64,000 bases of DNA from Sedimentisphaerales bacterium. Lineage in GTDB: Bacteria > Planctomycetota > Phycisphaerae > Sedimentisphaerales > Anaerobacaceae. The number at the start of each line of letters is the position of its first letter. The first letter of the stretch is position 1. Location: the NCBI GenBank assembly GCA_035476995.1, contig DATIKY010000344.1, forward strand, positions 4,550 through 68,549, read 5' to 3'. The translations under genes were made by a program, and so were the position numbers. Shown piece by piece: positions 1,321-46,662 of the stretch. Below the pieces are notes generated by a model. It was not told the origin of the DNA and did no database searches. It worked only from the letters and a program-made list of their open reading frames with translations.

Positions 1321-1911
1321 TTACATCGTCCGACGTCTCTTGAGCCAACCGACCACGCCCAGACCGAGGCTGCCCAGAAGCACGGCTCCCGGAGCGGGAA
1401 TCGGAGAGGCGGAAATGTGGAAAAGATCCCGATCTTGTCCCGAGGGATTGATCACACGGAACCCAAGCCATCGCACATCGTCAAGACCGGGCAGGGCGGA
1501 AATGTCCCAGACGATGCCGGCACCGGTGCCCGGAGCCAGATCCACCGCAGGACTCATGTACGTGGTGGGCGAGCCGCCATCAACGCTCCGCAGAAGCAGA
1601 CGGACCGTCCAGTCCTCGTTGTTGTCATCATTGAACAGCCTCAGACCGTAATGGGAGTAGGCGCTCAGGTCCCACGTTTTGCTCCCGATCCCGATGAAGT
1701 CATCCTCCTCGAGCAGCCCCCAGTAACCGACGTGGCCAGTCATCACGATGCTGCCAGGGAAGGACGTACCGCTACCCTGGAGTTCGCCACCGCCGGCGCC
1801 TTGCTTCGTGAAACCCAGAAGCTCGTCCACGGAGGGCGTAAACGTGTCAAAGGCCAGCAACGAGGGTGTGGCCAAACCGCAAATAACCAATACTGCCAAA
1901 AACCGTTTCAT
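1321..1911 (-). CDS. PEP-CTERM sorting-domain protein (small secreted exosortase cargo)
   Basis: The start was set at ATG 1909-1911, with AAGGAG about 7 nt upstream. Signal peptide MKRFLAVLVICGLATPSLLA. The C-terminus SPIPAPGAVLLGSLGLGVVGWLKRRRTM shows a P-x-P motif, a Gly-rich TM helix and an Arg cluster. Confidence 0.85.
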   Translation of the reverse strand: MKRFLAVLVICGLATPSLLAFDTFTPSVDELLGFTKQGAGGGELQGSGTSFPGSIVMTGHVGYWGLLEEDDFIGIGSKTWDLSAYSHYGLRLFNDDNNEDWTVRLLLRSVDGGSPTTYMSPAVDLAPGTGAGIVWDISALPGLDDVRWLGFRVINPSGQDRDLFHISASPIPAPGAVLLGSLGLGVVGWLKRRRTM

Positions 1912-1977
1912 CTGTTTCTCCTTTTGTCGTGCCAGTAGACGGAAAACCGAGGACAACTCCATTTCATCCTGTTTTTT

Positions 1978-3408: not shown

Positions 3409-4008
3409 TTACACGGCGCCGCGTCGGCGGAGCCAGCCGACCAGACCGGTGCCCAGACTGCCCAGGATGATGGCAGCGGGAGCCGGAATAACAGGGGACT
3501 CCGGAGGCGCCGGAGGCTCTGGGACTTCATACGTGATGGCGAAGACCGCCGACCCGATCGTCGAGCGACTGTCCGCAAAATCCGGGTGACCCGTGAAGAA
3601 ATCGATCTTCATAGTCACACCACCGTCCAACTGCGGCAGGAAACCGAGAGACAGAAGATCGAACGAGGTCTGCTGAACAGGCTCGTACTGAAGCTGGCCC
3701 ACAAGCACATTGTCCAGATAGACCTTGTGGATCTCCCCAGCGAAGACATTCCAAGGTCCATCGACGCCCGTGTGGTTCACGATCAAGTTGGCACTCGTGA
3801 TACTCGTGAAGCCCGCGGGAACATCCCAACTGTACGTCCAGTTGACGGTGGTCGGAACCACGTTCTGATTCTGCGGGCCGTAGGTGCCCGCAGGCGCACC
3901 ACTTGGCGTGGTGGTTATCAGCGGACTCACCGGCGTCGCATGCGCCAAGCCGGTGATCCCAACCACGCAAAGGGCTATTAGTAATCCTCTCATCATAACC
4001 TTCTCCAT
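3409..4008 (-). CDS. PEP-CTERM sorting-domain protein (small secreted exosortase cargo)
   Basis: GGAGGTGA lies about 7 nt upstream of ATG 4006-4008. Signal peptide MEKVMMRGLLIALCVVGITGLAHA. C-terminus SPVIPAPAAIILGSLGTGLVGWLRRRGAV. Confidence 0.85.
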   Translation of the reverse strand: MEKVMMRGLLIALCVVGITGLAHATPVSPLITTTPSGAPAGTYGPQNQNVVPTTVNWTYSWDVPAGFTSITSANLIVNHTGVDGPWNVFAGEIHKVYLDNVLVGQLQYEPVQQTSFDLLSLGFLPQLDGGVTMKIDFFTGHPDFADSRSTIGSAVFAITYEVPEPPAPPESPVIPAPAAIILGSLGTGLVGWLRRRGAV

Positions 4009-5040: not shown

Positions 5041-5370
5041 TTACGCTTGGTTCAGATCCCCTGCGACCTCGCGTGCGTCGCTGACAAACCGCAGCAACAT
5101 GTTCATCTTGTTCCGGACTTTCACCTTCCGATAGATGTTCCGAATATGGGTCTTCACCGTCCCCGGCTGGATGCAGAGCCGCCCTGCGATGCTACAGTGC
5201 CGCAATCCCTGGCACACCAAATCGGCAATCTGCACCTCGCGAGGGGTCAGGTCGTACCGTCGGGAAAGGTACGACCACTGCCTGCGATCCAAGAGCACTT
5301 GGCCCGATCCCGGACCGCCCGGATCGGCACCGGGCGTTCGGTCACCGTACAGTTCGTCTGGCGGCATCAT
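5041..5370 (-). CDS. LuxR/GerE-family HTH transcriptional regulator (EpsA-like, stand-alone DNA-binding domain)
   Basis: The C-terminal segment LTPREVQIADLVCQGLRHCSIAGRLCIQPGTVKTHIRNIYRKVKV is a typical GerE/LuxR HTH. The start was set at ATGATG 5365-5370, directly after the TAG of the upstream TPR gene (reverse strand reads TAG-G-ATGATG). The ORF-track start at 5421 would overlap that gene. Confidence 0.8.
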   Translation of the reverse strand: MMPPDELYGDRTPGADPGGPGSGQVLLDRRQWSYLSRRYDLTPREVQIADLVCQGLRHCSIAGRLCIQPGTVKTHIRNIYRKVKVRNKMNMLLRFVSDAREVAGDLNQA

Positions 5371-5372
5371 CG

Positions 5373-8300
5373 CTAGCGGCCTTTCTGCAATTGGTCCAGA
5401 AGGAGCCTGGCCTCCGTCCAATCCTCGCCAGGCCGGACGTCCACCAGATCCTGTTGATCGAAGCCCATCTTGAATTGATCCATCTCTTCCTGGAGCGACA
5501 GCGCGTCCCGGAGCACTTTGATGGCATGCGTCCTGCGTAGGGCCTGGTCATGGTCCCGGGCCAACTGGATGCTCCTGCGGTTGAGGTTCAGGGCTATTCG
5601 GAGGTGCTCCACCGCCTGCGTCCTGCGGTTCGTCGCGGCATATACTCGCGCAAGATGGAACTGCGGCGCCGCCGACTGCGCCGAACCGGCGGGAAACAGC
5701 GAGAGACACTTCACAAGATCGGCCTCGGCCCTGGCCATGTCGCCGCTCTTGTAGTACGCGACGCCCCGCGTGTCGAGCAAATCCATGTAGTCCGGCATCA
5801 GCGACAGCCCCCGATTGGCCAGAGTCAGCGCCTCATTGGTCGCCTCGGCTGAGGGGGAAGGCTTGTCGCAGAGCATCCACGCCAGATTGTTGATCGCGAT
5901 GACGTTGTTGGGATCCAGCTCCAGGATTCGACGGTTGAGCCGGGCGGCTTCTTCATTTCGTCCCGCGTCCTGCATCAGCATGCTCAGGAGCACGAGGGTG
6001 GGCACCGCCTGGGGATTGGGGTCCAGGATCATGCGGAGTTGATCCTCCGCCATCTGGAGGCCCTCGCGATCTCCGCTCTGGGCCAGAATTCGGGCCATGT
6101 TGGTCGCGGTCTCGGCGTCCCTCGGACTGGTCGTGCGCCAACTGTTCAAGAGCTGGTTGACTTGGGTCCACCGCCTTTCCTTGCGGAGCAGTTGCCCCAG
6201 CAGCATCACCGGCGTCGGATCGTTCGGATCGGCGGCGATCAGCTTGTCGAAAAGCTCCTGGGCCTTCTCCCGCTGCTGATCGGTGTACAACGCGGCCGCC
6301 AGGGCGATCTCGCACCGCCGGCGCGCCAGGCCCTCGAAGTCCGCCAGCTTGCCGCTGAGCAACTCCACCGCCTTTTCCGACCGATTGGCCTGGGCGTAAG
6401 CGTCGGCCCACTCGATGAGAATGCCAACATCGTCGGGATACTGCTTGGCCAGCGACGGCAGGGTCGTCAGGGCCGCCACGGACGGAGAGAGCCTCTTCTC
6501 CGCGATGGCTTTGAGCAGAAGCAATTGCTTATGTTGTTCGTTGTGAGCCAGGGCCCGGGTAGCGAAGTCCAGCGCTCGGCCCGGCTCCCCCTGGTTGAGT
6601 TCGAGCTGCGTCATCAGTTCCCAGCCGTCCGCGTACTTGGGGTAGTCCGTCGTGACCTGTCGCAGAAGCTGGCGGGCCTCCTCGATGGATGGCCCGGTGC
6701 CCCGCAGAATCAGGATGCGGGCCTTGTACACGCGGAGTTGCGGGTCCTTCTTCTCCTGAGGGCCGCTCTGGTCGGCCAGGGCCTTGTCGAGCATGGCCTC
6801 CGCTTCTCGCAAGAGCGACTGTTTTCCGGAAGCGATGAATAGAGCCGCTGAGAGTTTCTGGATACGCGGCTCCTGGGGCGACAGGGCGAGCGCCCGTCGG
6901 ACGTCCGAGATCGCCTCGGGGACCCGCCCGGACAAGCTGTAGACCCGCGCCCGAGCCTCCCAGTTCTCCGCATTGTGCGGCTCCAGGGCGATCGCCTGCC
7001 CGAGGTCCTCCAACGCCTTGCCCCCCTGTCCCAGAGTAATCAGCATGTCGGCGCGAAGCAGATACGCCTTGGCGTTACGCAGTTGATCCACCGCTTCATT
7101 GCAGATCTGCATCGCCTTTCCCGTATTCCCCTGCTGAATGTGAAGTTGAAGCTGCGCACGAATCACGGGGATCACATTCGGATCCGGCGTCCGCGCCCTC
7201 AGATCGGAAAGGAGGGACTCCGCCTTGGCGAACTCCTTGCGGAGGACCAGAACCCTCGCGTACGACAGCGTAAGATTCGAGTTGTTCGGGTCGCGAAGGA
7301 CCATTTGCTCGAGCGTGTCCGACGCGGAGTCGATGTCGCCCCGGCGGTAATCGCGCTCCACCAGAAACTGCTGGAGGTCCGGGTTGTTCAACTGCTGCGG
7401 TCCCACTTTCTCCAGAATGGTCGCGGCCTCGTCGAACTCGTTGGCCTTGTGCAACGCCGTAACCAGCCGCACCAGCACCTGAGAATCGTTCGGCGATTTC
7501 TCGAACGCCTCGCGGTACATCGTCAGGGCCAACTGCTGTTCCCTCGCCATCTCGTAGGTGGCCGCCAGGAGCAGGCGACTGCCCTGGTCCTCGGGATTGG
7601 TCAGCAAATTCTCCTGCAGCAGCTTGACGGTCTGAGCATAGTGGCTGAACTTTTTCTCGGGGTCCCGTTTGACCTCGTCGGAGTGGAGGCGGATCCAGAG
7701 CCGGGCCTGTTCATACCGCCACCGAGAACCCCTCTCCCCCTCCAAGACCTTGATCTCCTCGATCACCTTCTGCGATCGAGATGCGTCCTGGACCAACTGA
7801 TCGCAGCCCAGCAGCATGCGCCGGGACTGAATGTCGTTGGGGAACTGCACCGTCAGGTCGGTGAGCCATTGGCACAGCTTCTCTTGTTCCTGCCATCGGT
7901 AATACAGCTCGGCGAGCAACAGACCGCAATCGCGGCGAAGCTGCGGCTCCTCAAACCTGGCGATGGCGGCTTTGAGTACCGATTCGCATTCGGTCCGCTG
8001 ATTCTGCCGATCCAGCAACACCGCCAATCCCCGCACCGGATCGAACGCCTGGGGATGCGCGGCAATCGCGTTCAGATACAACGTCCTGGCTTTTTCGTTC
8101 TGGCCCTCGGCGGCGCTGAGTTCCGCACGAACGAGCGTCAAGCGGAGCTCGGACGGATTCTTGCTTTCCAGCTCGCTGAGCGCCGAAGAGGCGTCCGCGA
8201 ACTTCCCCTGCGTCATGGCGATCTGGACCTGGAGCAGCTTGACGCCGGGGGCGCCGTTGGCCTCCTTGTCCAGGACCGCCAATTCGGTTTCAATCTCTCG

Positions 8301-9779
8301 CCACGCCTGTTCCTTGTTCTCCTCGACAGGCTTGGCGGCCAACAATTGGGTCCGAGCCTGCAGACCCAGCAACTTCGCCTCCGTGACGACCTGCGGATCG
8401 GTCTTGGCAAGCTCCACAAGTTGCCCAGCCAGTTCCTGCACCTTGGGCCAGTTTCTGGCCTGAGCGAACAGTTGCGTCAGATAAAGGCGGGCTTGGACAT
8501 ACTCGGATTGCGGAGCCGCCCCACTCTGCTCTCCAGGGCGTTTGTTCAGCATGATCTGCAACTGGTTGATCGCCGACTGCGTGTCGCCCAGGCGGGAATA
8601 GGCGGAAGCGAGCCGCCGGTACACCTCTTCAGGGGCCCGCGGGCTCAGGGAAATCGCCCGCTGCCAGCTCGCCACGGCGTCCCGCAGACGACCCTGCTTC
8701 TCCGCCAGCAGACCTTCGAGATAGGCCTGCGTCGGCGGATCCAGTTCCTGATCACGCATCCGGGCCAGATAGCCCTCGACGTTGTCCAGGCGTCCCGCGA
8801 AAATGAGCAGACGCGTTGCGGTGGCGATGAAATCCCAGGACTCCGACGTCGCCTTCATGCCTTCGTCGGCGACCATGAACATCTCGTCCGCAGAGGCCGT
8901 CCGGAAGGCCAGGACCGCCCAGGTCTGCCACAGCCGGGGGTCGGTCTTGTCGATCTCCTGCAGGGCCTGAAGCTGCTCCCTCGCCTTGTCCAGGTTCCCT
9001 GCGACGATCAGTCCCTCCACCAGAAGCAAGCGAGTCGGCGCGTCCGATAGATCGCACGACATCGCCCGCGTCAGGTCGGCCAGCGCCTTGTCCTTGTCTT
9101 TCTGCCCCAGATAGTATCCCGCTCGCGTGACATAAGCCCGGGCCGACTCGGGATTCTTCTCGACGGCGTCGTCTAACCAGGCAAGGGCCGGTCGCTTCAC
9201 GGTTTCGGGCCGTTCCGCAGCCCACAGGCCCATGACGGTGTACGCCGGAACCTCGCCGGGATATTTGTCAACGACGGTCTTGACCTCCGCCACAGCCTTG
9301 TCGAACTCTCGCAACTGCCAGAAGGCCTGCCCCAGCATTCGACGCAAGCCGGGATCGTCCTGGATCTCGAGATGGCGAGTCGCGATCCCGATGGCGTCGC
9401 TCGGCACTCTCATGTCCAGATATAGTTGCGTGAGCTTCTTGGCCGTCTCAATGTCGTTCGGTCGAAACCGCAGAGCGTTCCGGTAGGCCGCAATGGCCTG
9501 CTGGATGTTGCCCTGGCTCATCGGCCGGCGATTCATCTGCGCGTCGGCGTACTTGACCAGCATCGCGACATCCTGGTTGTTCCTCGCGATATAGCGGCCC
9601 AGTTGCTCGGCGGCCTCGTCCCATTTCTTCGCTTCGAAGGCTTTGAGCCCTCGCGGGAGCGCCTGCTCGGCTTTCGTGGTCGTCTGCCAGGCGTGCAGCG
9701 CGTACACCGAAACCCCGAAGACTCCCGAGGCGACGATCAGAACGATCGCCAGCTTCCAGTTGAAGTATCTCATCGCCAT
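5373..9779 (-). CDS. giant TPR-repeat protein with N-terminal membrane anchor (PEP-CTERM-system PrsT-like)
   Basis: 1468 aa. The N-terminal helix is WKLAIVLIVASGVFGVSVYAL. After it come dozens of 34-residue TPR-like units (e.g. AIAAYRNALRFRPNDIETAKKLTQLYLDM, ALEDLGQAIALEPHNAENWEARARVYSLSG). It lies inside the exosortase operon. Confidence 0.85.
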   Translation of the reverse strand: MAMRYFNWKLAIVLIVASGVFGVSVYALHAWQTTTKAEQALPRGLKAFEAKKWDEAAEQLGRYIARNNQDVAMLVKYADAQMNRRPMSQGNIQQAIAAYRNALRFRPNDIETAKKLTQLYLDMRVPSDAIGIATRHLEIQDDPGLRRMLGQAFWQLREFDKAVAEVKTVVDKYPGEVPAYTVMGLWAAERPETVKRPALAWLDDAVEKNPESARAYVTRAGYYLGQKDKDKALADLTRAMSCDLSDAPTRLLLVEGLIVAGNLDKAREQLQALQEIDKTDPRLWQTWAVLAFRTASADEMFMVADEGMKATSESWDFIATATRLLIFAGRLDNVEGYLARMRDQELDPPTQAYLEGLLAEKQGRLRDAVASWQRAISLSPRAPEEVYRRLASAYSRLGDTQSAINQLQIMLNKRPGEQSGAAPQSEYVQARLYLTQLFAQARNWPKVQELAGQLVELAKTDPQVVTEAKLLGLQARTQLLAAKPVEENKEQAWREIETELAVLDKEANGAPGVKLLQVQIAMTQGKFADASSALSELESKNPSELRLTLVRAELSAAEGQNEKARTLYLNAIAAHPQAFDPVRGLAVLLDRQNQRTECESVLKAAIARFEEPQLRRDCGLLLAELYYRWQEQEKLCQWLTDLTVQFPNDIQSRRMLLGCDQLVQDASRSQKVIEEIKVLEGERGSRWRYEQARLWIRLHSDEVKRDPEKKFSHYAQTVKLLQENLLTNPEDQGSRLLLAATYEMAREQQLALTMYREAFEKSPNDSQVLVRLVTALHKANEFDEAATILEKVGPQQLNNPDLQQFLVERDYRRGDIDSASDTLEQMVLRDPNNSNLTLSYARVLVLRKEFAKAESLLSDLRARTPDPNVIPVIRAQLQLHIQQGNTGKAMQICNEAVDQLRNAKAYLLRADMLITLGQGGKALEDLGQAIALEPHNAENWEARARVYSLSGRVPEAISDVRRALALSPQEPRIQKLSAALFIASGKQSLLREAEAMLDKALADQSGPQEKKDPQLRVYKARILILRGTGPSIEEARQLLRQVTTDYPKYADGWELMTQLELNQGEPGRALDFATRALAHNEQHKQLLLLKAIAEKRLSPSVAALTTLPSLAKQYPDDVGILIEWADAYAQANRSEKAVELLSGKLADFEGLARRRCEIALAAALYTDQQREKAQELFDKLIAADPNDPTPVMLLGQLLRKERRWTQVNQLLNSWRTTSPRDAETATNMARILAQSGDREGLQMAEDQLRMILDPNPQAVPTLVLLSMLMQDAGRNEEAARLNRRILELDPNNVIAINNLAWMLCDKPSPSAEATNEALTLANRGLSLMPDYMDLLDTRGVAYYKSGDMARAEADLVKCLSLFPAGSAQSAAPQFHLARVYAATNRRTQAVEHLRIALNLNRRSIQLARDHDQALRRTHAIKVLRDALSLQEEMDQFKMGFDQQDLVDVRPGEDWTEARLLLDQLQKGR

Positions 9780-9891: not shown

Positions 9892-11604
9892 TCAGAACTG
9901 ATTCACAAAATTCTCAACCATTCTGCGGAATGTCCGCCAGCAGATCCACAGATCCAGCCCCGGCGAGAGATTCCGGACGTATTCCGTGTCGTAATGAATC
10001 CACTCCTGGAAATCCTTGTGGGCCGCACGAGTCCTGCAGACCTGCCACAACCCGGTGATGCCCGGTCGCACGGAAAGCCTCGCGTCGCGCCACGAGGCAC
10101 ACAACGTATTCTCGAATTCGGGCGACGGCCTGGGTCCCACCACGCTCATCTGCCCGCACAGCACATTGAAGAACTGCGGAATCTCGTCCAGATACGTCTC
10201 CCGCAGAAAGCGTCCGACCGTCGTGATGCGCGGGTCGTCCGCCATTTTGAACTGGGGACCGTCCACCTCGCAGACGAACCGCAGCTTGTCCTGCATCTTG
10301 TCGGCCCCCTGACGCATGGTGCGAAACTTGATGCAGTCGAACATCTTGCCGTGAAGGCCCTGCCGCCTGTCGTGGAAGAAGATCGGCCCCGGAGAGCTCA
10401 AGCGGACCGCCAGGGCGATCACCGGGATCACCGGCGCAAACAGCGCCAGCACGATCACAGCGGCGAACACGTCCGCCATCCTCTTGATCGAGCGGGCGTA
10501 CGAAAACTTCGGCCACGTGCGAAACGCGCTCTCCAAACGACCACATACGTGCTCTCGCGGCTTCGTTGCCCGCCGGACTGTCCCGGCGTCGCCTCCGTTT
10601 CCGTTCCGCCCCGGCTCCCGCGCCAGGCGGCCGCGAAGCACTTGGCCGGACTCCACCGACACGCGGGTCCCCACAATCGCGGAATCGACCACCGAGTCCC
10701 TGCGAACCGTGCAATCGTCGCACAAGACGGCCGGTCCCACAACGATGGCGCCGGGCTCCACCGTCACCTTCCGGCCCAGCACGACCGGACCGATCAGACG
10801 AGGGGCGTCGCCGACGCCGTCGCGGCCAGGGACGTCGTTGGGGTCGCGCAGGGTCGAGGAGGACGGCTCTCGCGACTCGGAGAGCCCCAGGACCATTCCA
10901 CACACGGCCAGCATGCCTTCCTCGGAATCCAGATCGAACACCGTCCCCGCGACGGCCATTCCGCGCATCGTATAGTTTCCGGCCCGGCACGCGTCGACCA
11001 CCGCGTCGAAGCCGGCCAGCAGATTCGGCTTGACGACCGCCTCGAACATGTCCGGTCGGACCAGCAGATGGTTCGGCCACCCGGCCGGCACCGCTATCGG
11101 CACGACCGAATCGGCGAACAACCGCCGATAGCCGACCAATCGATTGTCCGGCGTGAGACGAACCCGTTCCCGATAAGCCATCAGTTCCGGATCGATGTTC
11201 ACCGCGATGACGTCCGCCTGCATCCCCTCCACCGCGCGCGTCACCAGCAGGTGGTTCACGCACGTCGCAAACCGGCCGTCCGTGACAACGACCCACCGGT
11301 CGTTGTGTTGCGGAAGACCGTCGGCCCGGGCCCGTTCCCAGGAACATCGCGACAGACGATCGATCGAGACCTCTTGGCACCAGGTTTCCGGAAGAATCCA
11401 CTGGGATTGACGCGGGCTTGTCCAGCCGGCCATGGGAGGCCGACCGACCGCCGTGCGGCACCGCCACAAATGGTCCATCCCGTCCAACAGCACCCGGTTC
11501 AACGGGTTCGTGGACAAACCATACCGCAGCAGACTCCCTCTGCCGCCGACGGCGCTGTCTCCACTGTCTCGAATGACGATCGCCTGCATATCCAACCAGA
11601 TCAC
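9892..11604 (-). CDS. priming polyprenyl-phosphate sugar transferase (EpsB/WbaP-type, PF02397-like) with N-terminal nucleotidyltransferase-like + hexapeptide-repeat module
   Basis: The C-terminal 195 aa carry a TM helix ([22 protein letters not shown]) and bacterial sugar transferase hallmarks ([58 protein letters not shown]). The N-terminal ~330 aa contain [13 protein letters not shown] and the hexapeptide run [32 protein letters not shown]. Confidence 0.85.
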
Positions 11605-11636: not shown

Positions 11637-13940
11637 TCAGTTCTCCGCCGGACGATCGCCGCCCGGTCCGGACGACGCCAGCAGCAGCTTCTTAGGTTTG
11701 CCGCCCTTGCGGGTGGTGGCCGCACTTCGCGACCGATACGTATAGCCTTGACGATACAGGCCCTGATCCGCAGGGACGTTGCTCACGACGGCGCCCAGGA
11801 TTCGCGCCCGGATGCGGGCGAACCGCTCCTTGGCCTCCTTCAGATCGGGCCCAGTCGTCTGCCCGGCGAAGCTGACCAGGATCACCGCGTCGGTGAGCTT
11901 GGCCCAAACCAGCGCGTCGGGGAAAGCCAGCGTCGGCGGACTGTCCACGATCAGGTGATCGTACTCCCGTCCCAGTCGCTCCATCTGCTCGGAAGCCGTG
12001 GAGGAGGTCAGCAACTCATAGGCGTCGCCCGAGTGGCGGGGATTGGCCGCCAGAACGTGCAGGCCGCTCGACGGCAGCACGCACACGACGCCGCTGGGGT
12101 CTTCGCCCAGCAGAACGTTCTGCAGACCGCTGGTGTTGTTCAGGACGTTGAGCATGTGCCCGATGTCGGGCTTTCGAAGATCGCCGTCGATCAGCAGCAC
12201 CTTCTTGCCGGACTTGGCCAGGCTGGTCGCCAGGTTGACCGCGAACGTGGTCTTGCCCTCGCGCATGCCGGGGCTGCTGATGACGAGCCGCTTGGGCGTG
12301 CCCCCGTTGTACAGGAGACCGAGGTTGGTGCGGATCGTCTGATAGTCGCCCGCGATCTGCTCGGCGAACAAGGCCGGCTTGACCGTCCGCGAACTCGTCG
12401 TGGTCCCGAGAATCGGCAGATCGGCCTGCCGCATGATATCCGCCGGAGTCTGGATCGTCTTATCCAGCTTATCCCGCAAGAACGCCAGGCCCAGTCCGCA
12501 TCCCAGCGCGCCGAACACCACCATGCCGGCATATTTGACGCGGTCATCGTCCTTGCCTTTCACCTCCGCCATCGAGGCGATCTCCACGCGGGGCCGGCGA
12601 TCCCGCTCCATCTCGAACCATTTGAGCCGCTGGTTCACCCGATCGAGCACCTGTTCATTCATTTCCAGACTGCGCTGCTCGTCCTGGATGTCGAGATTGG
12701 TGGTTCCCATCTCGACGGTCCGCGCCTGCTGCACGCTCAGAATGCGCCGGATTTCGTCGATGTGGGCTTCGACCTGGGTCTTCTGGGCCTTGGCTTCAAG
12801 CACCCGCTGCTGGGCCGCTTCCTTGAGTCTGCCCTCCAGATTGGCGTCGAACTCCTCCGCGAGAACCTTGCGCCGCTCCTCGAGTTTCTGCTGAAAAGCT
12901 TTCAGCACCGCCAATCGCTGCGTGTAAACCGGGTTGCCCGGCAGGTGCGTCTGCTGGGCGACGATCAACTCCCGCTCCATCTGGACGATGTTGGTCGACA
13001 ACTCCGCGATCATAGGATCCGAGTTGATGTGGTTGGTGCGCGCGTTCACGATCTGCTCCGGGGCCAGCGACATCACCTCGGTCTTCTCGTATACGCCGAT
13101 GTCCGCTTCGATCTTGACCCGATCCGCCTCGAGTTGGGTCAGTCGGCCCTGCAAGGCGCTTTGGGTCTGGAGCTCCACCGCCTGGAGAGCGTCGAGCCCG
13201 GTCGATCCGTACTGCATCGCCATTTTCCGGAGCTTGCTTCGCGATTCGGCGATTCGTTTCCCGTACTCATTCCGCTGAGTCTCCAGAATCGTGATATTCT
13301 GGCTCTCGCTCGTCGTGGTCTCCACGCCGTACTGGCCGACGTAGTTGCGCAGGAATGAATTGACGATGATCCGAGCCTCGTCGTCGTTCTGGCTCCTCAT
13401 CGTCACCGCCATCAGTTCGGAGCCCTGCAGGTAACCGGCCGTAATCTTCTGCTTGGCGATCGCCTTGCGAAGGACCTGGTCGGGCAGTTCATTGACGTCC
13501 TTGGGCAGAATTCTCGCCAGGAGCTTCTCGATCCGCGTGCTGGGCCTGCCGCTGAAGAACGCCAGATTGCGACCCGCCAGGTCGTCTACGATCTTCTGAA
13601 GCCGCTGCTCGTCCGTTATCAACAGCATGGCCTGGGTGTTCACGAACGGCGCGTAGCTGGACACCTCGTCGGGCGACGGCGTGTTGTCCAGAATGCCAGG
13701 GACCACTGGTTTGACTCGAACCAGGCCCTGGACCACATACACCGGCTCGACCAGGAACCACACCACAGGGAGCCCGGCCGCGATGATCAGCAACGCCACG
13801 ACCACGACGATGGGCCATCGCCTGCGCACACTCTCCATGAGGTTCGACGTCGGGGGGGCTTCCTGGACCTCGGCCGGCGGCTCATAGACGATCGGCTTCT
13901 GCTCGATCACCTGATCCAGATACTTCTCCAGGTTGTTCAT
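11637..13940 (-). CDS. polysaccharide co-polymerase / tyrosine autokinase (Wzc/GumC-type chain-length determinant)
   Basis: It has an N-terminal TM helix, a Wzz-like region, a long coiled-coil periplasmic region and a second TM helix. The C-terminal P-loop domain reads ISSPGMREGKTTFAVNLATSLAKSGKKVLLIDGDLRKPD, with a short Tyr-containing tail YRQGYTYRS. Confidence 0.9.
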   Translation of the reverse strand: MNNLEKYLDQVIEQKPIVYEPPAEVQEAPPTSNLMESVRRRWPIVVVVALLIIAAGLPVVWFLVEPVYVVQGLVRVKPVVPGILDNTPSPDEVSSYAPFVNTQAMLLITDEQRLQKIVDDLAGRNLAFFSGRPSTRIEKLLARILPKDVNELPDQVLRKAIAKQKITAGYLQGSELMAVTMRSQNDDEARIIVNSFLRNYVGQYGVETTTSESQNITILETQRNEYGKRIAESRSKLRKMAMQYGSTGLDALQAVELQTQSALQGRLTQLEADRVKIEADIGVYEKTEVMSLAPEQIVNARTNHINSDPMIAELSTNIVQMERELIVAQQTHLPGNPVYTQRLAVLKAFQQKLEERRKVLAEEFDANLEGRLKEAAQQRVLEAKAQKTQVEAHIDEIRRILSVQQARTVEMGTTNLDIQDEQRSLEMNEQVLDRVNQRLKWFEMERDRRPRVEIASMAEVKGKDDDRVKYAGMVVFGALGCGLGLAFLRDKLDKTIQTPADIMRQADLPILGTTTSSRTVKPALFAEQIAGDYQTIRTNLGLLYNGGTPKRLVISSPGMREGKTTFAVNLATSLAKSGKKVLLIDGDLRKPDIGHMLNVLNNTSGLQNVLLGEDPSGVVCVLPSSGLHVLAANPRHSGDAYELLTSSTASEQMERLGREYDHLIVDSPPTLAFPDALVWAKLTDAVILVSFAGQTTGPDLKEAKERFARIRARILGAVVSNVPADQGLYRQGYTYRSRSAATTRKGGKPKKLLLASSGPGGDRPAEN

Positions 13941-13958: not shown

Positions 13959-15938
13959 TTAAGGGTCTGGTACGTGTTGAGGTTGCCGCCGGGAAACGAT
14001 GGCCAGCTCGATCGGAACCGGGAGGGTGGTCAGCCGGGTCAGAACCCACAGCTCCACCACCACCACGCCCAGCGCCAGGGGCATCATGGCGTATCCGCCG
14101 TAATCGTGAAACCCCTGTCTCCATCCTTCTCCCTCGATCATCGTAAAAGCCACGCTTGTCACCGCAAGTCGCAGCGTATTGCACAACAGAGCGATCGGAA
14201 GGCTGGAGATCAGAATGACCGCCTTGGCCCACCATTCCCGCCGCGTCAACAGCACGACCAAGCCGGTGATCACGAAGAACGCCGTGATCATCCGCAGACC
14301 GTTGCACGCCTCGGCCACCGCCACGCTCGTGTCTCCGATGTGGATGATGTTGCCGTCCCGCAGGATATCCCAGCCGCCCAACTCCAGGCAGAAGACCGCC
14401 GAGCCCGTGGCCCACTGCTGCAGCGGAATCGCCAGCGCCTGCTGGACGCGGTTGGGCCAGGGCAGCATCAGGCACAGAAACACCAGCACGCCCGCCAGCT
14501 TCCACAGATGTCGCCAGCCCAGCATCAACAGCACCAGCGCCGCAACCGCCAGAACCAGGGACAACCGCTCGGCCGACTGATACATGTAGAACAGTCCCGC
14601 CGTACGGAGCGCCTGCGTGGCGACGATCGCCGCCCCCCCCGCCAGAATCGCCGAGCGGAGTCGAATCGCGCCAAACTCCTGCCGGCGCGACCAGACCACG
14701 TAAGCCGCCAGGAACGGAACCAGCATTCCCGAGGAATACTCGTCGCTTCGAGTCCAGATGTCCATCAGTTCGCCCATGGTGGGCCAGTACGACCACAGCA
14801 GCGCGGCCAGGACCGCCAGACCCGCGGACAACAGGGCCGTCTGACCGGGCGACAGACCCAGCCGCTCGCCCAGGGACCGCAGGAACCGGTCGGCTCGCGA
14901 TGCCCCGACCGGGACCGCCTGCGCGGGATCGACCACGCGCTCGCCCTCCTCGCAAGACGCCGTCCGTCGGACGACACAGTCGTGGTCCGGCACCGAGACC
15001 CGATAATCCAGGATCGAATCGCGAACCTGAGAACCCCTGCCGATCACGGCCCCCGCCCACAACACGCTCTTGACCACCGCGCTGTTCTCGCCCACCACGA
15101 CGTTACGTCCGATCATCGCAGGACCCATGACCACCGCGCCCTCCAGAATCCGGGCGTGATCACCGATCAGGACCGGCCCACAGATTCGAGCGCCGGGATG
15201 CGTAACCGCCTCGACGCCTTCATATATCGGACCTTGCCGCGACATCTCGCAGGTTCCATCGCGCAGCCCGACCAGCCTACCGCTTTGAAACAGAGTGTCG
15301 ACCGCCTCAAGGTATCCCGTGTGATCGTGGAAGTTCCCGACCGAATGCGAGAGCACGAACGGCCGAACCGTTCCTCCCGCGCGCAGAATCGCCGGAACCA
15401 CGCCCTCTTTGATGTCTGAATAACCGCCGCAGGGAATCCGCTCAAGCACCTGCGGCTGGCACAAGAAGATCTCCGCCGCCGGACCGGGCTTCGCGGAATC
15501 CGACGTTCCGGGATTGAATACCATCGTCAGGTCGGCTCCCCCGGCTCGATGCGTCTCGACGAGCTCCGCGATCGAGGGTGGAACCGCGAGGCTGCCGGAG
15601 AGCACAAGAATCGGACCCTGGGAATCGCGGGGCGCCGCGTCGCGAAGGCACCCCCCCGTTCCGTTGATCAGTTCTTCGACCCGAAGCGTCACCGCCAACC
15701 GGCTGTCGCGACACATCGCCGTCACGTCCGCCGCCACGTCGCCCGGGCAACAGACGGTCACGTCGGAGAGCCCCTCCTCGGCCAGATGATCCAGCAACCG
15801 CGCCAGCGCGGGCCGGTCCGCGATCGGCCACAACGCCGCAGGCAGACGCGCAGCCAGCGGGCATCGTCCGAAGTCGCGTCCTCCGACGAGCACGACCGTG
15901 CAGATCTCCAGGCCCTTCACTGTGTTTTCACCGGCCAT
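13959..15938 (-). CDS. exosortase (EpsH family) fused to an N-terminal nucleotidyltransferase-like + hexapeptide-repeat module
   Basis: The start was set at ATG 15936-15938 (MAGENTVKGLEICTVVLVGG). The C-terminal ~290 aa are polytopic and carry exosortase active-site motifs: VAVAEACNGLRM (Cys), LLCNTLRLAV (Arg) and GFHDYGGYAMMP (His). The N-terminal ~330 aa contain LVGGRDFGRCPL..LWPIADRPAL and the LbH run RICGPVLIGDHARILEGAVVMGPAMIGRNVVVGENSAV. Confidence 0.85.
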   Translation of the reverse strand: MAGENTVKGLEICTVVLVGGRDFGRCPLAARLPAALWPIADRPALARLLDHLAEEGLSDVTVCCPGDVAADVTAMCRDSRLAVTLRVEELINGTGGCLRDAAPRDSQGPILVLSGSLAVPPSIAELVETHRAGGADLTMVFNPGTSDSAKPGPAAEIFLCQPQVLERIPCGGYSDIKEGVVPAILRAGGTVRPFVLSHSVGNFHDHTGYLEAVDTLFQSGRLVGLRDGTCEMSRQGPIYEGVEAVTHPGARICGPVLIGDHARILEGAVVMGPAMIGRNVVVGENSAVVKSVLWAGAVIGRGSQVRDSILDYRVSVPDHDCVVRRTASCEEGERVVDPAQAVPVGASRADRFLRSLGERLGLSPGQTALLSAGLAVLAALLWSYWPTMGELMDIWTRSDEYSSGMLVPFLAAYVVWSRRQEFGAIRLRSAILAGGAAIVATQALRTAGLFYMYQSAERLSLVLAVAALVLLMLGWRHLWKLAGVLVFLCLMLPWPNRVQQALAIPLQQWATGSAVFCLELGGWDILRDGNIIHIGDTSVAVAEACNGLRMITAFFVITGLVVLLTRREWWAKAVILISSLPIALLCNTLRLAVTSVAFTMIEGEGWRQGFHDYGGYAMMPLALGVVVVELWVLTRLTTLPVPIELAIVSRRQPQHVPDP

Positions 15939-16321
15939 TGGCTCTTCGTCTCGCCTGAGAACTTCCCCAGGCAGGCCCCATAATCCATCTTTTCGGAATA
16001 CCCCGCGCCGATGCGGGAGCACTACAGAGCTGTCTCCCACCGGCACAAATCCAGGATATCCCACCCATAGACACACTTCTCAGCACTCTGGCGTCTCCAC
16101 CGTTCCGTGGCACTTCTCCAGAGCTCGTTTCGCCGGGAGGCGAAAACCCCTCGTCCATGAACCGACGCATCCTAACACAGGGGCGTCGTGGTTTCCACTG
16201 AATTCCATGATCGCCGGCGACCGCCATCGGGCACAGGGCCCTGCCCGAACGCAGAGCGTTCGTCGCCGCAAACCCGACGGAGGCACGTCTTTATCATCGG
16301 CCGAGCGTACCCCCTACATGA

Positions 16322-19120: not shown

Positions 19121-19771
19121 CTACGCCTCTCCGCCGACGGCGATGAGCGTCTCGGCCATGAACGTCACTCTCTGCTTGACGATCCGGCTCCCCGGGAAGC
19201 ACCTCGCCAAATCGGACGCGCTGAGCAGGCGGATTCCGCTGACCGGGACGCCGAGCATGTACCTGCGGTCGATGTGGTTATACCGCACCAGTCGCCCGGC
19301 GAGCAGATATCCATGCCAGGGCAGCCAGGTCACGAACGGCAGGCGCAGGTGAAATTCGAAGGGATACCAGCGGTTTGGCGTGGTCACGAACCATCGCTTG
19401 CCCACCCGCATGATCTCGCTGGCCATCCTGCGCTGATCCTCCGGACCCCCGACATGCTCGATGACGGCGTTGGAGTAGACGATGTCGAAGTGCTTGTCCG
19501 GCCAAGGCATCGCGCGCGCGTCTCCGACCCGGGCATCCACATCGGGATGGCGGCCCTTGATCCGCTCTACATGCTCCGGCAGGAGATTCAGCGCGCTGAC
19601 GTTCTTGGGCCACGAATAGACGTCGAGCAACTGCAAACCGTCGCCTCCGTCCGACCCGGCCTGCGACCCCACGTCCAGAACGCGCATCTGTTCCACCGGC
19701 TTCATGGTCTGGTCAAACAGCTCCAGTTTCTTCCTTCGGCTCACGACCGATAAACGGGAAAACACGCTCAT
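19121..19771 (-). CDS. class I SAM-dependent methyltransferase
   Basis: Motif I is VLDVGSQAGSDGGDG. FDIVYSNAVIEHV is typical of Methyltransf_11-type proteins. The start ATG overlaps the upstream stop (ATGA). Confidence 0.8.
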   Translation of the reverse strand: MSVFSRLSVVSRRKKLELFDQTMKPVEQMRVLDVGSQAGSDGGDGLQLLDVYSWPKNVSALNLLPEHVERIKGRHPDVDARVGDARAMPWPDKHFDIVYSNAVIEHVGGPEDQRRMASEIMRVGKRWFVTTPNRWYPFEFHLRLPFVTWLPWHGYLLAGRLVRYNHIDRRYMLGVPVSGIRLLSASDLARCFPGSRIVKQRVTFMAETLIAVGGEA

Positions 19772-20265
19772 GCACGAGCCTCCTCTCTGTTGAGTCCTTC
19801 CAGGAAGAGGGAGATTCGCCGGATCACAGCATCCGGACTCGGGCGGCGGATCTGCGGGACGAAGGCCTTGAGCTGGCCGATTCGCCCGGGCAGTTCCGTC
19901 TCATCCCTGGCCACCAGGATATGGCCGCACGCGGCGAACTTGTTCGCCAATCCCTCCTGGTGGTCGTTGACGACCTCGCCGTAGCGGCGTCGGCGAGGCA
20001 TGGCCAGCATCGCCTTGCCGTGGTCCATCGCCATCGCGATGGTCCCCATCCCCGCGTGGCTGATGACGGCCGAGGCCTTCACCAACTGCATGTCGAAGGC
20101 GTTCTTGTCCAGAGCGGTCACCGCCTCGAAGTGGCGGGGCTTGTACGCGCTGTCCCCCACCTGAGCGAAGATCTCTTCGCCAATCGCCCCCGTGCCGGCC
20201 AAATCGTCCACCGCCCGAACCAGACGATCAAATGGAAACTGAGTCCCCACGGTAAGAAAGATCAT
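19768..20265 (-). CDS. glycosyltransferase family 28 C-terminal-domain protein (Alg13 / Cps14G / PssE-like catalytic subunit)
   Basis: MIFLTVGTQFPFDRLVRAVD ... VISHAGMGTIAMAMDHGKAMLAMPRRRRYGEVVNDHQ matches the MurG-C/Alg13 pattern (TvGt..F..L .. H.G.gs .. P). It overlaps the upstream partner gene by 4 nt. Confidence 0.75.
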   Translation of the reverse strand: MIFLTVGTQFPFDRLVRAVDDLAGTGAIGEEIFAQVGDSAYKPRHFEAVTALDKNAFDMQLVKASAVISHAGMGTIAMAMDHGKAMLAMPRRRRYGEVVNDHQEGLANKFAACGHILVARDETELPGRIGQLKAFVPQIRRPSPDAVIRRISLFLEGLNREEARA

Positions 20266-20729
20266 ATCACCGCTCCGACATACTCAGCCTTCGGATTCTT
20301 CGCGACCAGCTCGGGCCACTGCACGAGGAGCAGGTCGGCGAACGGACGGACGAGCCGGCCCGACAGGGAGAGCCGCTCCACGTTCGTGATGCTGTCGAGC
20401 CAGACCACCCTGGCTCCGATCAGCTTGCCCAGCAGGCACATCAGACAACCGGGAGCAGCCCCCGTGCTGATGACAACGTCGGGTCGCTCCCGCAGGGTGA
20501 TCAGTATGCAGCGAGACAACACCGCGATCAGACGGAACGGGTGATCGCGATTGCACTCCCCCACTGCGTAGACCCTGCTGTTCTCTCCCAGCGAGCCGCT
20601 GACCATTCGACCGGTGGTCACCCAGAACGTGGGCAGCCCGGCCCAGGCCCCGACCACCTTGCGCAATTGGGTCAAGTGTCCCCCGGCGGAAGCCGCCAGA
20701 CAAATCTTCGGCAATTTGCGTTTCATCAT
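20262..20729 (-). CDS. Alg14 / Cps14F / PssD-like glycosyltransferase membrane-anchoring subunit
   Basis: KICLAASAGGHLTQL ... PDVVISTGAAPGCLMCLLGKLIGARVVWLDSITNVERLSLSGRL is the Alg14-like signature (GGH, StGa, es.ar). It is paired with the Alg13-like gene downstream. Confidence 0.75.
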   Translation of the reverse strand: MMKRKLPKICLAASAGGHLTQLRKVVGAWAGLPTFWVTTGRMVSGSLGENSRVYAVGECNRDHPFRLIAVLSRCILITLRERPDVVISTGAAPGCLMCLLGKLIGARVVWLDSITNVERLSLSGRLVRPFADLLLVQWPELVAKNPKAEYVGAVI

Positions 20730-24025: not shown

Positions 24026-24205
24026 CGTCGAGAACCCAACCTTTCCTGAGAACCTCCGGCGATCACAGCCCTGCCACCCGCCGAAGAGCCGCGCCACCCA
24101 CGTAGTATAGCGGCAACCGGTACGATGGGAAACCGCGCAGCATCGGATCTGCCGGCCGCAAGGCCCTCCGGGGCAATTCTCCCAGACGGACGGTCTGCAT
24201 TGGAC

Positions 24206-32477: not shown

Positions 32478-33131
32478 TCAGCGAAGGTTTCTTCGCCGAA
32501 CCAGACCGACCACGAAGGAACCCAGACCCGTCAACAGCAGCGCGCCGGGGGCGGGAATCACCGCGGCGTTCAAGACCATGTCGCTGACCAGAAGGCCAAC
32601 CGGGTTTGCATGAGCGTACAACGGACCATTCACGACCCTGAACTCGAGGGTATTCCAATCGTCCAGGATGAAACCGGTATCGATCACGAAGCCCTCGAGG
32701 CTTTTGTAGCCGGCGGTCGCCCGCTCAATACCCGTCCACACATCGTTCAGGTAGATCTTCCCGAAGTCATCGGTCGCCCACTTGCCGGTGATCCAGATCT
32801 TCATATTTGCAGCATCATCCGACGAGAGATAGAACGACTGGGTGAACGAGTACGCACCGGGCGCATCGGTCTTGCTGCCCTGCGTGGGGGCAATCCACCT
32901 GCTGTCGGCCGGGGCAGGCAGCCACGCCGGGTGAGCCGTCACGGCCAAAGCGGGGGCCGGTCCGCTGGGCGTCACCAGCGTGTAGTGGGTGTCAGTCGCC
33001 CCACTGGCCAGCGGAACGAACGAATTGTCCACACCCGTGTTGTAAATCGTCGGGACAGCCATGGCCTGACCGCCGAGCACGCAGGCAATCACAGCCACCA
33101 CCAACATTCGAATCACTTTGACGTTCTCCAT
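32478..33131 (-). CDS. PEP-CTERM sorting-domain protein (small secreted exosortase cargo)
   Basis: The start was set at ATG 33129-33131 (AGGAGG-N6-ATG). Signal peptide MENVKVIRMLVVAVIACVLGGQAMA. C-terminus AAVIPAPGALLLTGLGSFVVGLVRRRNLR. Confidence 0.85.
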   Translation of the reverse strand: MENVKVIRMLVVAVIACVLGGQAMAVPTIYNTGVDNSFVPLASGATDTHYTLVTPSGPAPALAVTAHPAWLPAPADSRWIAPTQGSKTDAPGAYSFTQSFYLSSDDAANMKIWITGKWATDDFGKIYLNDVWTGIERATAGYKSLEGFVIDTGFILDDWNTLEFRVVNGPLYAHANPVGLLVSDMVLNAAVIPAPGALLLTGLGSFVVGLVRRRNLR

Positions 33132-33244
33132 AGTCATCCTCCTAAAAAAAACCAGGACAAATTCCGGGACGTCTGTCCAACGTAGGTCCGGACACGACCA
33201 CCGAAAGACGCACAAGCATCTACAGAAGCCCATCATTTTGAACC

Positions 33245-33273
33245 AGTATACCATGATTACGAAAGGATGTCAA
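33245..33273 (-). promoter_or_regulatory. near-consensus sigma70-type promoter with extended -10 (TTGACA-N17-TGg-TATACT on the minus strand)
   Basis: The minus strand reads TTGACATCCTTTCGTAATCATGGTATACT. On the plus strand this is TGTCAA 33268-33273 and AGTATA 33245-33250. It sits in an AT-rich gap about 110 nt upstream of the PEP-CTERM gene start. Confidence 0.5.
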
Positions 33274-35259: not shown

Positions 35260-36051
35260 TCATTCGCCGTGTCCGGCTGCTTCCGGAAACGGGGTCGCCT
35301 CGTCCGAGGCCTCCGCCGCGAGTACGCGCCCATCCTGGTCAGGCAAGTGGGCGAAGACCACGTCGGCAATGTCCGAGGCCAGAGCCTTGGCGGCCTGTTC
35401 GGTGACCGAACTGACTTGGACCTGAGCCACATAACGCGCCGGATCGCCGGCCAGATTCGGCCGGCGGCCGAGCCAGCCCGAGAAATCCTTCTCGCTCAAT
35501 GTGACTCGTCCGTTCAGGACGTAGTAGTTCAGCACGTAGATTCGCTCAAAAGTAGGCGCCGGCTTGCGGAAGCAGTGGATCAGACAGTCCACCGTCCGGC
35601 CGGACCAACTGACCACCTGAGAAGAAATCGTGCTTTCCCAGATCCAGCCGCTCCCGGGATAACACCGCTGGGGCCGGTGTCCGATAATCCCGGACAGGCG
35701 GGTCGCACAGTAGACGACGTACAGGTTGCCCCCCAGGCGCTCGGTCAGGTTGACGTATCTGCGGTTCACATAGTCATCCGCGAAATTCCGCTCCATGTAG
35801 AGCAGGGTGCCGGCTTCGATCTCCAGGTCCTGGCCCTCCCAGTTGCCGATCCGGGCGGGGATCCGGCTCAACGGAATACACAACTCGATATGGTTGTCCG
35901 CGGACATCTTCCAGCGACGGACAAGATACCGATACGCCAGGCCGCCCGCGACCAACACCACCACAGCGACGACGGTCGCCATGACCGCGGTCACAGCCCC
36001 AATGCTCCGATGCTCTTCGTTATGTCGATGCCTCATAGGCACAACCTGCAT
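35260..36051 (-). CDS. epsI: EpsI-family exosortase-associated protein
   Basis: It has an N-terminal TM helix (AVTAVMATVVAVVVLVAGGLA). The EpsI-like core reads IPARIGNWEGQDLEIE ... YVNRRY ... LYVVYCATRLSGIIGHRPQRCYPGSGW. The start is ambiguous (ATG 36051, GTG 36042 or ATG 36036). Confidence 0.75.
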   Translation of the reverse strand: MQVVPMRHRHNEEHRSIGAVTAVMATVVAVVVLVAGGLAYRYLVRRWKMSADNHIELCIPLSRIPARIGNWEGQDLEIEAGTLLYMERNFADDYVNRRYVNLTERLGGNLYVVYCATRLSGIIGHRPQRCYPGSGWIWESTISSQVVSWSGRTVDCLIHCFRKPAPTFERIYVLNYYVLNGRVTLSEKDFSGWLGRRPNLAGDPARYVAQVQVSSVTEQAAKALASDIADVVFAHLPDQDGRVLAAEASDEATPFPEAAGHGE

Positions 36052-36343: not shown

Positions 36344-36373
36344 TTGTCGCCGAGGCAGTTTATTTGCTACAAT
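36344..36373 (+). promoter_or_regulatory. sigma70-type promoter candidate, TTGTCG-N18-TACAAT
   Basis: TTGTCG at 36344-36349 and TACAAT at 36368-36373. It lies about 70 nt upstream of the ATG of the 1491-aa protein, in the divergent gap shared with epsI. Confidence 0.3.
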
Positions 36374-42753: not shown

Positions 42754-42757
42754 CACG

Positions 42758-46661: not shown

Positions 46662-46662
46662 G

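Follow-up and report, generated by a model that had tools for sequence, protein, structure and literature searches.

We analysed a 64,000-nucleotide stretch of contig DATIKY010000344.1 (positions 4,550 to 68,549) from Sedimentisphaerales bacterium (GenBank assembly GCA_035476995.1), hereafter the window, which has a G+C content of about 63 % and carries a gene in which a nucleotidyltransferase-like module is fused to an exosortase. The open reading frame (ORF) runs from stop to stop over 13959-16076 of the minus strand, and from the ATG at 15938 it encodes 659 aa; the whole fusion gene, stop codon included, thus occupies 13959..15938 and comprises a predicted pseudo-enzyme module of the GDP-mannose pyrophosphorylase (GMPP) type, a linker and the exosortase. 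Its product is identical in length and sequence (100 %) to the NCBI protein 'exosortase [Sedimentisphaerales bacterium]' (P0001). The preliminary description of this DNA had placed the ORF at these positions without naming a strand; the ORF is real, and all of the peptides quoted at the time are found in it (EICTVVLVGGRDFGRCPL...LWPIADRPALARLLDHL and RICGPVLIGDHARILEGAVVMGPAMIGRNVVVGENSAVV, and in the exosortase half AEACNGLR at residues 542-549, CNTLRL at 586-591 and FHDYGGY at 610-616). The gene belongs to an extended polysaccharide locus on the minus strand, with glycosyltransferases, an aminotransferase, a reductase, two UDP-sugar dehydrogenases and split Alg13/Alg14-like genes, and it heads a cassette of exosortase, Wzc-like tyrosine kinase, priming phosphoglycosyltransferase, PrsT-like tetratricopeptide repeat (TPR) protein and LuxR regulator.

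The two halves are joined by an Arg-rich cytoplasmic linker (residues 331-363; 14850..14948, minus strand) that ends in a short amphipathic helix and is predicted to be disordered, with a predicted local distance difference test score (pLDDT) below 50 at residues 331-347 of an AlphaFold2 model. A frameshift or missed stop had been feared at exactly this place, 14850-14950, and a junction that falls in a low-complexity linker does raise, a priori, the possibility that a sequencing or assembly error merged two genes. We give that artefact practically no credence. The linker is in frame in all homologs, and the N-terminal module and the exosortase share a single frame in 74/74 complete ORFs from related loci of independent genomes, among them the closed chromosomes CP070782 and OY970194; the cultured species Anaerobaca lacustris also carries the fusion protein (WP_349245104). 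The full-length homologs and the single ORF in every one of these genomes rule out a frameshift or mis-assembly. A promoter and terminator scan found nothing above background, and hence no signal in the linker that would split the ORF, and neither the 383-bp leader nor the rest of the window has an Rfam match to a riboswitch or structured RNA. The best 120 of 668 homologous clusters are all full length (621-742 aa) and all have the same architecture, and a genome scan found at least 232 species-representative genomes that encode a relative, and 'exosortase' is all that the databases call it. The best 80 of these 232 genomes are all Planctomycetota, closed chromosomes included, and most are labelled Phycisphaerae or Sedimentisphaerales. 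The architecture is not rare: with at least 232 species genomes, it is what a large clade of Phycisphaerae normally has.

Judged by its sequence, the exosortase half is catalytically intact. Its membrane domain (residues 364-640; 14019..14849, minus strand) matches Pfam Exosortase_EpsH (PF09721) over residues 377-633 (E 2.7e-52; 178.1 bits against a cut-off of 25.7), TIGR02602 with 142.2 bits (cut-off 105.55) and the TIGR04178 signature with 53.4 bits (cut-off 23), and in the AlphaFold2 model it is polytopic, with 8-9 long helices within residues 364-637. The catalytic residues Cys545, Arg590 and His611, encoded at 14304-14306, 14169-14171 and 14106-14108 of the minus strand, are invariant by column counts in 75/75 genomes. 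As to the class of this exosortase, which the preliminary description had left to be settled, it belongs to no subfamily named so far. Every NCBIfam model for a named Xrt subfamily scores the fusion protein below its own cut-off (XrtD 152 of 400 bits, XrtW 146 of 425, XrtA 139 of 208, XrtV 100 of 313 and XrtB 74 of 275), which rules out membership, and we found no model specific for this clade among the NCBIfam models.

The N-terminal module has the fold of a sugar-nucleotide pyrophosphorylase. In the AlphaFold2 model, which was built on 120 homologs, residues 11-330 are predicted with a pLDDT of about 85-95 and fold into an alpha/beta domain and, after it, a regular beta-helix. The first part is a nucleotidyltransferase-like (NTase-like) domain (residues 11-228; 15255..15908, minus strand; pLDDT about 85-93), and the second a left-handed beta-helix (LbH) of the GMPPB_C/eIF2B-epsilon type (residues 229-330; 14949..15254, minus strand; pLDDT 90-96) with short regular strands, whose residues 237-325 match the Pfam families LbH_EIF2B, Hexapep and Hexapep_GlmU. 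Pfam NTP_transferase (PF00483) matches residues 14-143 with 14.9 bits (E 0.02), under its cut-off of 21.2; a precomputed PF00483 match is present in some homologs of the fusion protein, and the NCBIfam mannose-1-phosphate guanylyltransferase model man1P_GTase_Rv scores 71 bits over residues 14-140. Foldseek against the PDB aligns about 365 columns with E 1.8e-17 to 1e-13 and target TM scores of 0.6-0.66. The structures matched include the GDP-mannose pyrophosphorylases Arabidopsis VTC1 and human GMPPB together with its inactive paralog GMPPA (7d72, 8yre), as well as the cyanobacterial NDP-sugar pyrophosphorylase tlr0611, archaeal ST0452, GlmU and the non-catalytic gamma and epsilon subunits of eIF2B. 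A profile of the module only recovers the same PDB chains by sequence (E 3.6e-26 to 9e-14). The order suggested earlier for this protein, a nucleotidyltransferase-like fold, hexapeptide repeats and then an exosortase, therefore holds in the domain searches, in the model and in Foldseek, and the cytoplasmic module is best described as derived from a GDP-mannose-pyrophosphorylase-type enzyme.

The fold is kept and the catalytic residues are replaced. We mapped residues through a HMMER alignment to VTC1 and counted columns over the 75 genomes, using the published contacts of VTC1, in which Gly9, Thr12, Arg13 and Lys23 contact pyrophosphate and residue 80, Gly85, Asn109, Asp111, Glu162, Asn173, Glu195, Lys196, Trp217 and Asp219 contact GDP-mannose (PMC9168903). 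The signature G-x-G-T-R-L...P-K-P is absent, the aligned residues being D-F-G-R...P-(T/A)-A. Thr12 has become Phe23 (F in 73/75) and Arg13 has become Gly24 (G in 71/75); at position 34, the counterpart of Lys23, the lysine of PKP, there is Thr in 41 genomes, Ala in 18, Met in 7, Val in 3, Pro in 2 and Lys in 0/75. The sugar-nucleotide side has fared similarly: Asn109 corresponds to position 114 (S37, P35), Asp111 to position 116 (S39, N17, G12, A3 and D2, so that Asp is found in 2/75), Trp217 to position 200 (Val or Ala) and Asp219 to Asn202 (N67, S7, D1), and the pair Glu195-Lys196 appears in swapped order as Lys177-Glu178 (K 75/75, E 74/75). Of these, Asp111 and Asp219 are the aspartates that bind metal and sugar. 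By this mapping the module is a pseudo-enzyme that has lost the residues for pyrophosphate, Mg2+ and sugar phosphate.

What stands in place of the lost residues is itself strongly conserved. The derived signature loop LVGGRDFGRCPLAARLPAALWP (residues 17-38; 15825..15890, minus strand) replaces GGxGTRLxPLT...PKP with D22 in 72 of the genomes, F23 in 73, G24, R25 and C26 in 71 each and W37 in all 75, so the divergent nucleotide-binding loop remarked on in the preliminary description is real and its DFGRC core is kept in at least 71/75. The segment EELINGTGGCLRD (residues 88-100; 15639..15677, minus strand), counterpart of VTC1 E80...G85-T-A-G88...R94-D95, retains the nucleoside-binding pattern E88, G93-T94-x-G96, R99-D100, with T94 in 68/75, D100 in 67/75 and G93, G96 and R99 invariant. 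Across the module the invariant residues are W37, G93, G96, R99, Y173, D175, K177, G201 and Y209. The module is under purifying selection. Because the catalytic ligands are replaced while the DFGRC loop and the nucleoside segment are near-invariant, we conclude that phosphoryl-transfer chemistry is gone and that the domain is functional nonetheless; the earlier guess of a regulatory or pseudo-enzymatic module agrees with this residue mapping. The module also has conserved cysteines (C26 in 71/75, C97 in 60/75, C160 in 74/75 and, in at least 90 % of close homologs, C63/C64 and C303). Two of these cysteines fall in former nucleotide-pocket loops, and a metal or redox site there is conceivable.

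The module also occurs without an exosortase. A search of the module only against 1.84 billion representative proteins gave 94 matches at E <= 1e-30, in two length classes: fusions of about 620-690 aa and short proteins of about 320-430 aa. The DFGRC loop recurs in some of the short proteins, and a group more distantly related carries an 'LAG.H.WG...PRPL.P' loop and comprises at least 351 clusters, all from Phycisphaerae/Planctomycetota. This distant group also lacks the catalytic set: among 120 relatives, the residue aligned to Thr12 is Trp in 119 and that aligned to Arg13 is Gly in 103, with Lys23 replaced by Arg or Trp and Asp111 by Thr, Ser or Ala. In the databases its members are named 'NDP-sugar synthase' or 'mannose-1-phosphate guanylyltransferase', and several hundred Phycisphaerae proteins (P0249, P0344, P0392-P0510; loci L084 and L086-L089) are probably mis-annotated pseudo-enzymes.

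These pipeline labels, together with a whole fold that matches active GMPases and with Arg21 and Arg25 of the loop, which could in principle touch phosphates, are what can be said for an active, non-canonical sugar-1-phosphate nucleotidyltransferase that supplies NDP-sugar locally. We consider such an enzyme very improbable, since the residues aligned to Thr12, Arg13, Lys23, Asn109, Asp111 and Asp219 are replaced across the 75 fused genomes and the 120 standalone relatives, the NTP_transferase score is below threshold, and the non-catalytic eIF2B gamma and epsilon subunits, which are among the best matches, show the same pattern of loss. With the pyrophosphate and metal ligands replaced, the module probably makes no sugar nucleotide.

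In each of the 5/5 contexts that we examined, a Wzc-like gene and an LbH-bearing Bac_transf gene follow directly downstream of the standalone gene, and none has an exosortase within 8-9 kb. Two of these contexts are on multi-megabase contigs; in 1/5 the TPR and GerE genes follow in the order seen in the window. Since the standalone forms share the cassette slot and also lack the catalytic set, the conserved unit is the set of three genes for pseudo-pyrophosphorylase, kinase and transferase, and the loss of catalysis, as the sequences indicate, is older than the fusion. The module is thus no mere attachment to the exosortase, since the partners that it always has are the Wzc-like kinase and the priming transferase. 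The origin of the fusion was approached with a rough neighbour-joining tree and Fitch parsimony, in which the outgroup is all standalone and fused and short forms interleave in the DFGRC clade with 16 changes, a count that we do not trust because broken gene calls among the short entries (one of them, P0256, falls in the same cluster as a protein of 645 aa) make such counts unreliable. A single origin does not emerge from this tree, and the number of fusion or fission events that it gives is unreliable. Unannotated genes of 303 aa near two of the standalone modules show no relationship with one another or with the exosortase, and we regard their presence as coincidence.

A paralog of the module is found two genes downstream of the fusion gene. 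The priming phosphoglycosyltransferase (565 aa; 9892..11589, minus strand; Bac_transf E 3.8e-60) has a core of about 200 residues that is preceded in the same ORF, in 62/64 genomes, by about 360 cytoplasmic residues. Along the minus strand, this protein consists of a degenerate NTase-like domain (nt 10870-11589), an LbH (10615-10806), a linker and a PglC-like monotopic core (9895-10509). Its extension has weak GMPPB_C and LbH_EIF2B matches, and hhalign aligns it with the N-terminal module of the exosortase at a probability of 99.2 % (E 1.4e-18). In the AlphaFold2 model of the transferase, the core is preceded by an alpha/beta domain, a beta-helix and a disordered linker. Foldseek places the N-terminus of this model with the GMPP-type structures already matched by the exosortase module (E about 1e-9, 365-390 columns) and its C-terminus with PglC (E 1.3e-8, TM score 0.67). 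No signature loop is recognisable in its NTase-like domain. The transferase, then, carries a paralogous and more degenerate NTase/LbH module. It is an unusual fusion in its own right, conserved in at least 60 genomes under the plain database name 'sugar transferase'.

The gene order downstream of the fusion gene is fixed across related loci. The Wzc-like gene, a chain-length determinant and tyrosine autokinase of 767 aa (11637..13940, minus strand), lies 18 bp downstream and is the next gene in 69/69 loci; it exceeds the TIGR01007 cut-off (119.7 against 108.05 bits) and ends in the Tyr cluster YRQGYTY. The transferase with its extension is present in 60/60, the PrsT-like gene in 57/57 and the LuxR gene in 39/44. 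In the window, the PrsT-like TPR protein (1468 aa; 5373..9779, minus strand) scores 301 bits with the TIGR02917 PrsT model, whose cut-off is 312, and the small LuxR/GerE-type helix-turn-helix regulator (5041..5421, minus strand; start codon uncertain) has NCBIfam helix-turn-helix matches and an EpsA-like C-terminus (EpsA 29.5 bits). Upstream of the fusion gene the genes vary among related loci, with a UDP-sugar dehydrogenase (UGDH) in 7/61. The split genes for an Alg13-like protein (Glyco_tran_28_C, 165 aa) and an Alg14-like protein (155 aa) at 19768-20729, minus strand, recur directly upstream of the standalone module in loci L081/L082 and L084, and the cassette may include this pair as one more semi-conserved component. 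Given the invariant Y173 and Y209 of the module and the Tyr cluster of the kinase, the module as a substrate of the Wzc-like kinase is a possibility.

Three proteins in the window are candidate substrates of the exosortase. Each ends in [IV]PAP[GA]A followed by a hydrophobic transmembrane helix and RRR, and they were found by a regular-expression scan: a 213-aa protein with a PEP-CTERM-like tail that has PAP for PEP (1321..1962, minus strand; Pfam PEP-CTERM 17.1 bits), a 199-aa protein ending in ...VIPAPAAIILGSLGTGLVGWLRRRGAV (3409..4008, minus strand) and a 258-aa protein ending in ...VIPAPGALLLTGLGSFVVGLVRRRNLR (32478..33254, minus strand). All score 14-17 bits with Pfam PEP-CTERM, below the cut-off of 20.7. 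The variant [IV]PAP[GAS]A, in place of PEP, is found in the window and in loci L033, L049 and L075. Because this PAP-type signal scores below the PEP-CTERM thresholds, the substrates of this exosortase clade are likely to be under-counted by the current Pfam and NCBIfam models. The window further encodes an EpsI-like (DUF3485) protein, the usual companion of exosortases, which is here unfused and about 19 kb from the fusion gene (35260..36051, minus strand; PF11984 51 bits); with TIGR02914 it scores 34.6 bits against a cut-off of 42.8, and it matches the C-terminal part of XrtD.

We propose that the module serves the polysaccharide-initiation machinery as a regulatory or scaffold subunit and has become fused to an intact exosortase, and that the modules of the exosortase and the transferase pair and so couple sorting to initiation; on the combined analysis we lean towards this reading, with considerable reservation. 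The two modules would pair through their beta-helices, like GMPPA-GMPPB, KONJAC-VTC1 and eIF2B-gamma-epsilon, and would give the polysaccharide-initiation complex a regulatory platform in the cytoplasm. The kept nucleoside pocket may let this platform sense a nucleotide or NDP-sugar, and the platform could respond to a nucleotide ligand, to the tyrosine kinase or to both. The fusion would put a PEP-CTERM-type transpeptidase beside the site where the undecaprenyl-phosphate-linked sugar is made, and the cleavage and attachment of [IV]PAP[GA]A-tailed proteins might in this way be coordinated with polysaccharide synthesis.

Several points weigh against this proposal. The pairing is an inference from indirect evidence. 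The hhalign match between the two modules is confident over the LbH only, with the NTase-like parts aligning weakly. In the transferase model (mean pLDDT 69.6) some loops are predicted with low confidence, and its TM scores to the GMPP structures are about 0.4. Of the former active site only the nucleoside-binding loop is kept, and from this sequence feature we infer that a ligand could be bound. The conserved gene order is compatible with co-regulation alone as well. Finally, the PEP-CTERM-like candidate substrates are under the Pfam threshold, and a PEP-CTERM-type gene lies within 10 kb in 3/80 related loci, so that proximity of substrates is not conserved.

A different use of the same pocket would be a sensor acting in cis, in which the module binds a nucleotide or NDP-sugar and gates the attached exosortase allosterically, with no pairing to the transferase. 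Such a sensor would account for the kept nucleoside-binding segment (E88...G93-T-G-G96...R99-D100) and for DFGRC, K177-E178 and N202, which line the former active-site pocket by alignment, and GMPPA, which binds GDP-mannose, sets a precedent. We nevertheless find it unlikely, if worth keeping in view, because standalone copies without an exosortase occupy the same cassette slot and the target therefore cannot be the exosortase alone; in addition, the paralogous module of the transferase and the fixed set of three genes suggest a shared assembly, and a flexible, disordered linker of about 30 residues is a poor conduit for allostery. Another possibility is that the beta-helix drives the exosortase to form homo-dimers or homo-trimers, and the transferase to do so on its own, with neither ligand nor cross-talk. 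LbH domains do dimerise or trimerise GMPases, AGPase and GlmU (PMC9168903), and priming transferases are active as dimers (PMC10312794, PMC12802240). As a mere oligomerisation handle, however, the module would have no reason for the strong conservation of its pocket loops (DFGRC, GTAG-RD, YxDIKE), nor would a soluble standalone copy beside the kinase and the transferase be explained, and we rate this account as improbable.

Because of the kinase and transferase partners and the standalone copies, the fusion would tie sorting to polysaccharide initiation and would not serve as a private sensor of the exosortase. The preliminary description had foreseen a physical coupling of protein sorting to sugar-nucleotide sensing or supply. 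Supply is unlikely with the ligands replaced, and sensing on behalf of the exosortase alone fits poorly with the standalone copies; the reading of the module as a regulator stands. In a bolder and rather doubtful version, the two modules hetero-dimerise and, with the Wzc-like kinase, make up one machine of the inner membrane, whose exosortase would transfer [IV]PAP[GA]A-tailed proteins, once cleaved, directly onto a nascent lipid-linked glycan or polysaccharide. If true, this machine would provide the long-sought acceptor of transpeptidation and the physical basis of the link between PEP-CTERM proteins and exopolysaccharide (EPS), and it would represent a kind of nucleotide-sensing scaffold that is new for Wzx/Wzy-type pathways.

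Further genes of the window lie outside the cassette. Two predicted membrane proteins of the EPS locus, of 530 aa (33487-35079, minus strand) and 455 aa (22730-24097, minus strand), have no Pfam or NCBIfam match and are, judged by position, candidates for flippase or polymerase; the former adjoins the EpsI-like gene and was considered as a second, divergent exosortase, a candidate dropped for lack of any similarity. A repeat/beta-propeller protein of 1587 aa (36156-40919, plus strand) ends in ...NGGCSMSATGGGS...LLVPYAIVVVFMAILRHRDRRR, that is, in a Cys motif, a transmembrane segment and an Arg cluster, and its gene overlaps by 4 nt that of a CPBP/myxosortase-like intramembrane protease (40916-41671, plus strand), which scores 74.6 bits with Mrt_core and also matches MrtP/MrtC-like models, all below their cut-offs. 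From their sequences the two look like a second, MYXO-CTERM-type sorting pair in the window. A type II secretion gene set (41896-51981, plus strand) adjoins the sorting and EPS loci; it holds a GspC-like gene with a PDZ domain, the only member checked against Pfam, a 763-aa protein of secretin size, ORFs of the size of the ATPase and platform proteins, and small pseudopilin-like ORFs.

In 2006, exosortases were predicted to couple protein sorting to exopolysaccharide production, and how this coupling works and which acceptor serves in transpeptidation are the setting in which the family described here is relevant. It offers a 'Rosetta-stone' fusion, in which a subunit that otherwise travels only with a Wzc-like kinase and a priming transferase is joined to an exosortase. 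The fusion predicts a super-complex of sorting and initiation in an abundant, little-studied class that has a cultured member in Anaerobaca lacustris. It also flags several hundred entries named 'NDP-sugar synthase' or 'mannose-1-phosphate guanylyltransferase' as probable pseudo-enzymes, and it would add a bacterial, membrane-tethered case to the theme of GMPPA, KONJAC and eIF2B-gamma-epsilon, dead pyrophosphorylases reused as regulators.

We finally compared the locus with known systems. In the exosortase system described by Haft in 2006, fusions are known to EpsI and to CAAX-protease-like domains and to no others (PMC1569441). That a fusion to an NDP-sugar pyrophosphorylase-like domain had not been described, as the preliminary description supposed, agrees with our literature searches: none of the papers searched connects exosortases in a relevant way with nucleotidyltransferase, pyrophosphorylase or hexapeptide domains. 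Exosortases encoded in EPS loci are known as such, but the pseudo-GMPP module, the paralogous module of the transferase and the conserved set of three genes are, as far as we can tell, undescribed. With the XrtA/EpsH system (PMC1569441) our locus shares the polytopic membrane domain with its Cys/Arg/His triad, small secreted proteins with a Pro-x-Pro, transmembrane and Arg-rich tail, and an EPS-locus context of PrsT-like TPR protein, tyrosine autokinase, chain-length determinant, Bac_transf priming enzyme and EpsI-like protein. It differs in that the fusion protein has no C-terminal EpsI domain and has a 360-residue N-terminal cytoplasmic pseudo-GMPP module instead, and in that the substrate tails are [IV]PAP[GA]A and not PEP.

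The regulation proposed here also has precedents. Priming transferases are controlled by cytoplasmic accessory domains or partners, be they nucleotide-sensing domains, dimer-promoting partner proteins or kinases (PMC10312794, PMC12802240). The DUF of WbaP and the EpsZ-EpsW pair share with our system the concept of a non-catalytic cytoplasmic domain or small partner that controls the priming step, but their accessory fold is a Rossmann-like DUF or a receiver domain in place of the GMPP-like NTase and LbH, and they have no described link to a protein-sorting enzyme. The gamma and epsilon subunits of eIF2B rank with the best matches in sequence and fold. A dead hetero-pair (PMC9168903, PMC11228364), they likewise form a hetero-dimeric scaffold of NTase-like and LbH domains with catalysis lost; they differ in being part of a eukaryotic translation factor, with no membrane domain and in an unrelated pathway. 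A further likeness is to GMPPA/GMPPB and KONJAC/VTC1, which share the NTase and LbH fold with one member inactive yet conserved: non-catalytic GMPPA binds GDP-mannose and regulates GMPPB, with assembly through the beta-helix (PMC11228364), and the LbH mediates dimerisation of GMPases, with KONJAC (KJC) activating VTC1 (PMC9168903). As in GMPPA/GMPPB a paralog is at hand, here encoded in the same operon. Compared with GMPPA, the loss of residues in our module is more extensive and an active GMPase partner is not evident in the cassette; in contrast to the GMPPA and KONJAC systems, neither paralog here looks catalytic, and each is fused to a membrane enzyme, the one to a transpeptidase and the other to a phosphoglycosyltransferase, two enzymes of unrelated function.

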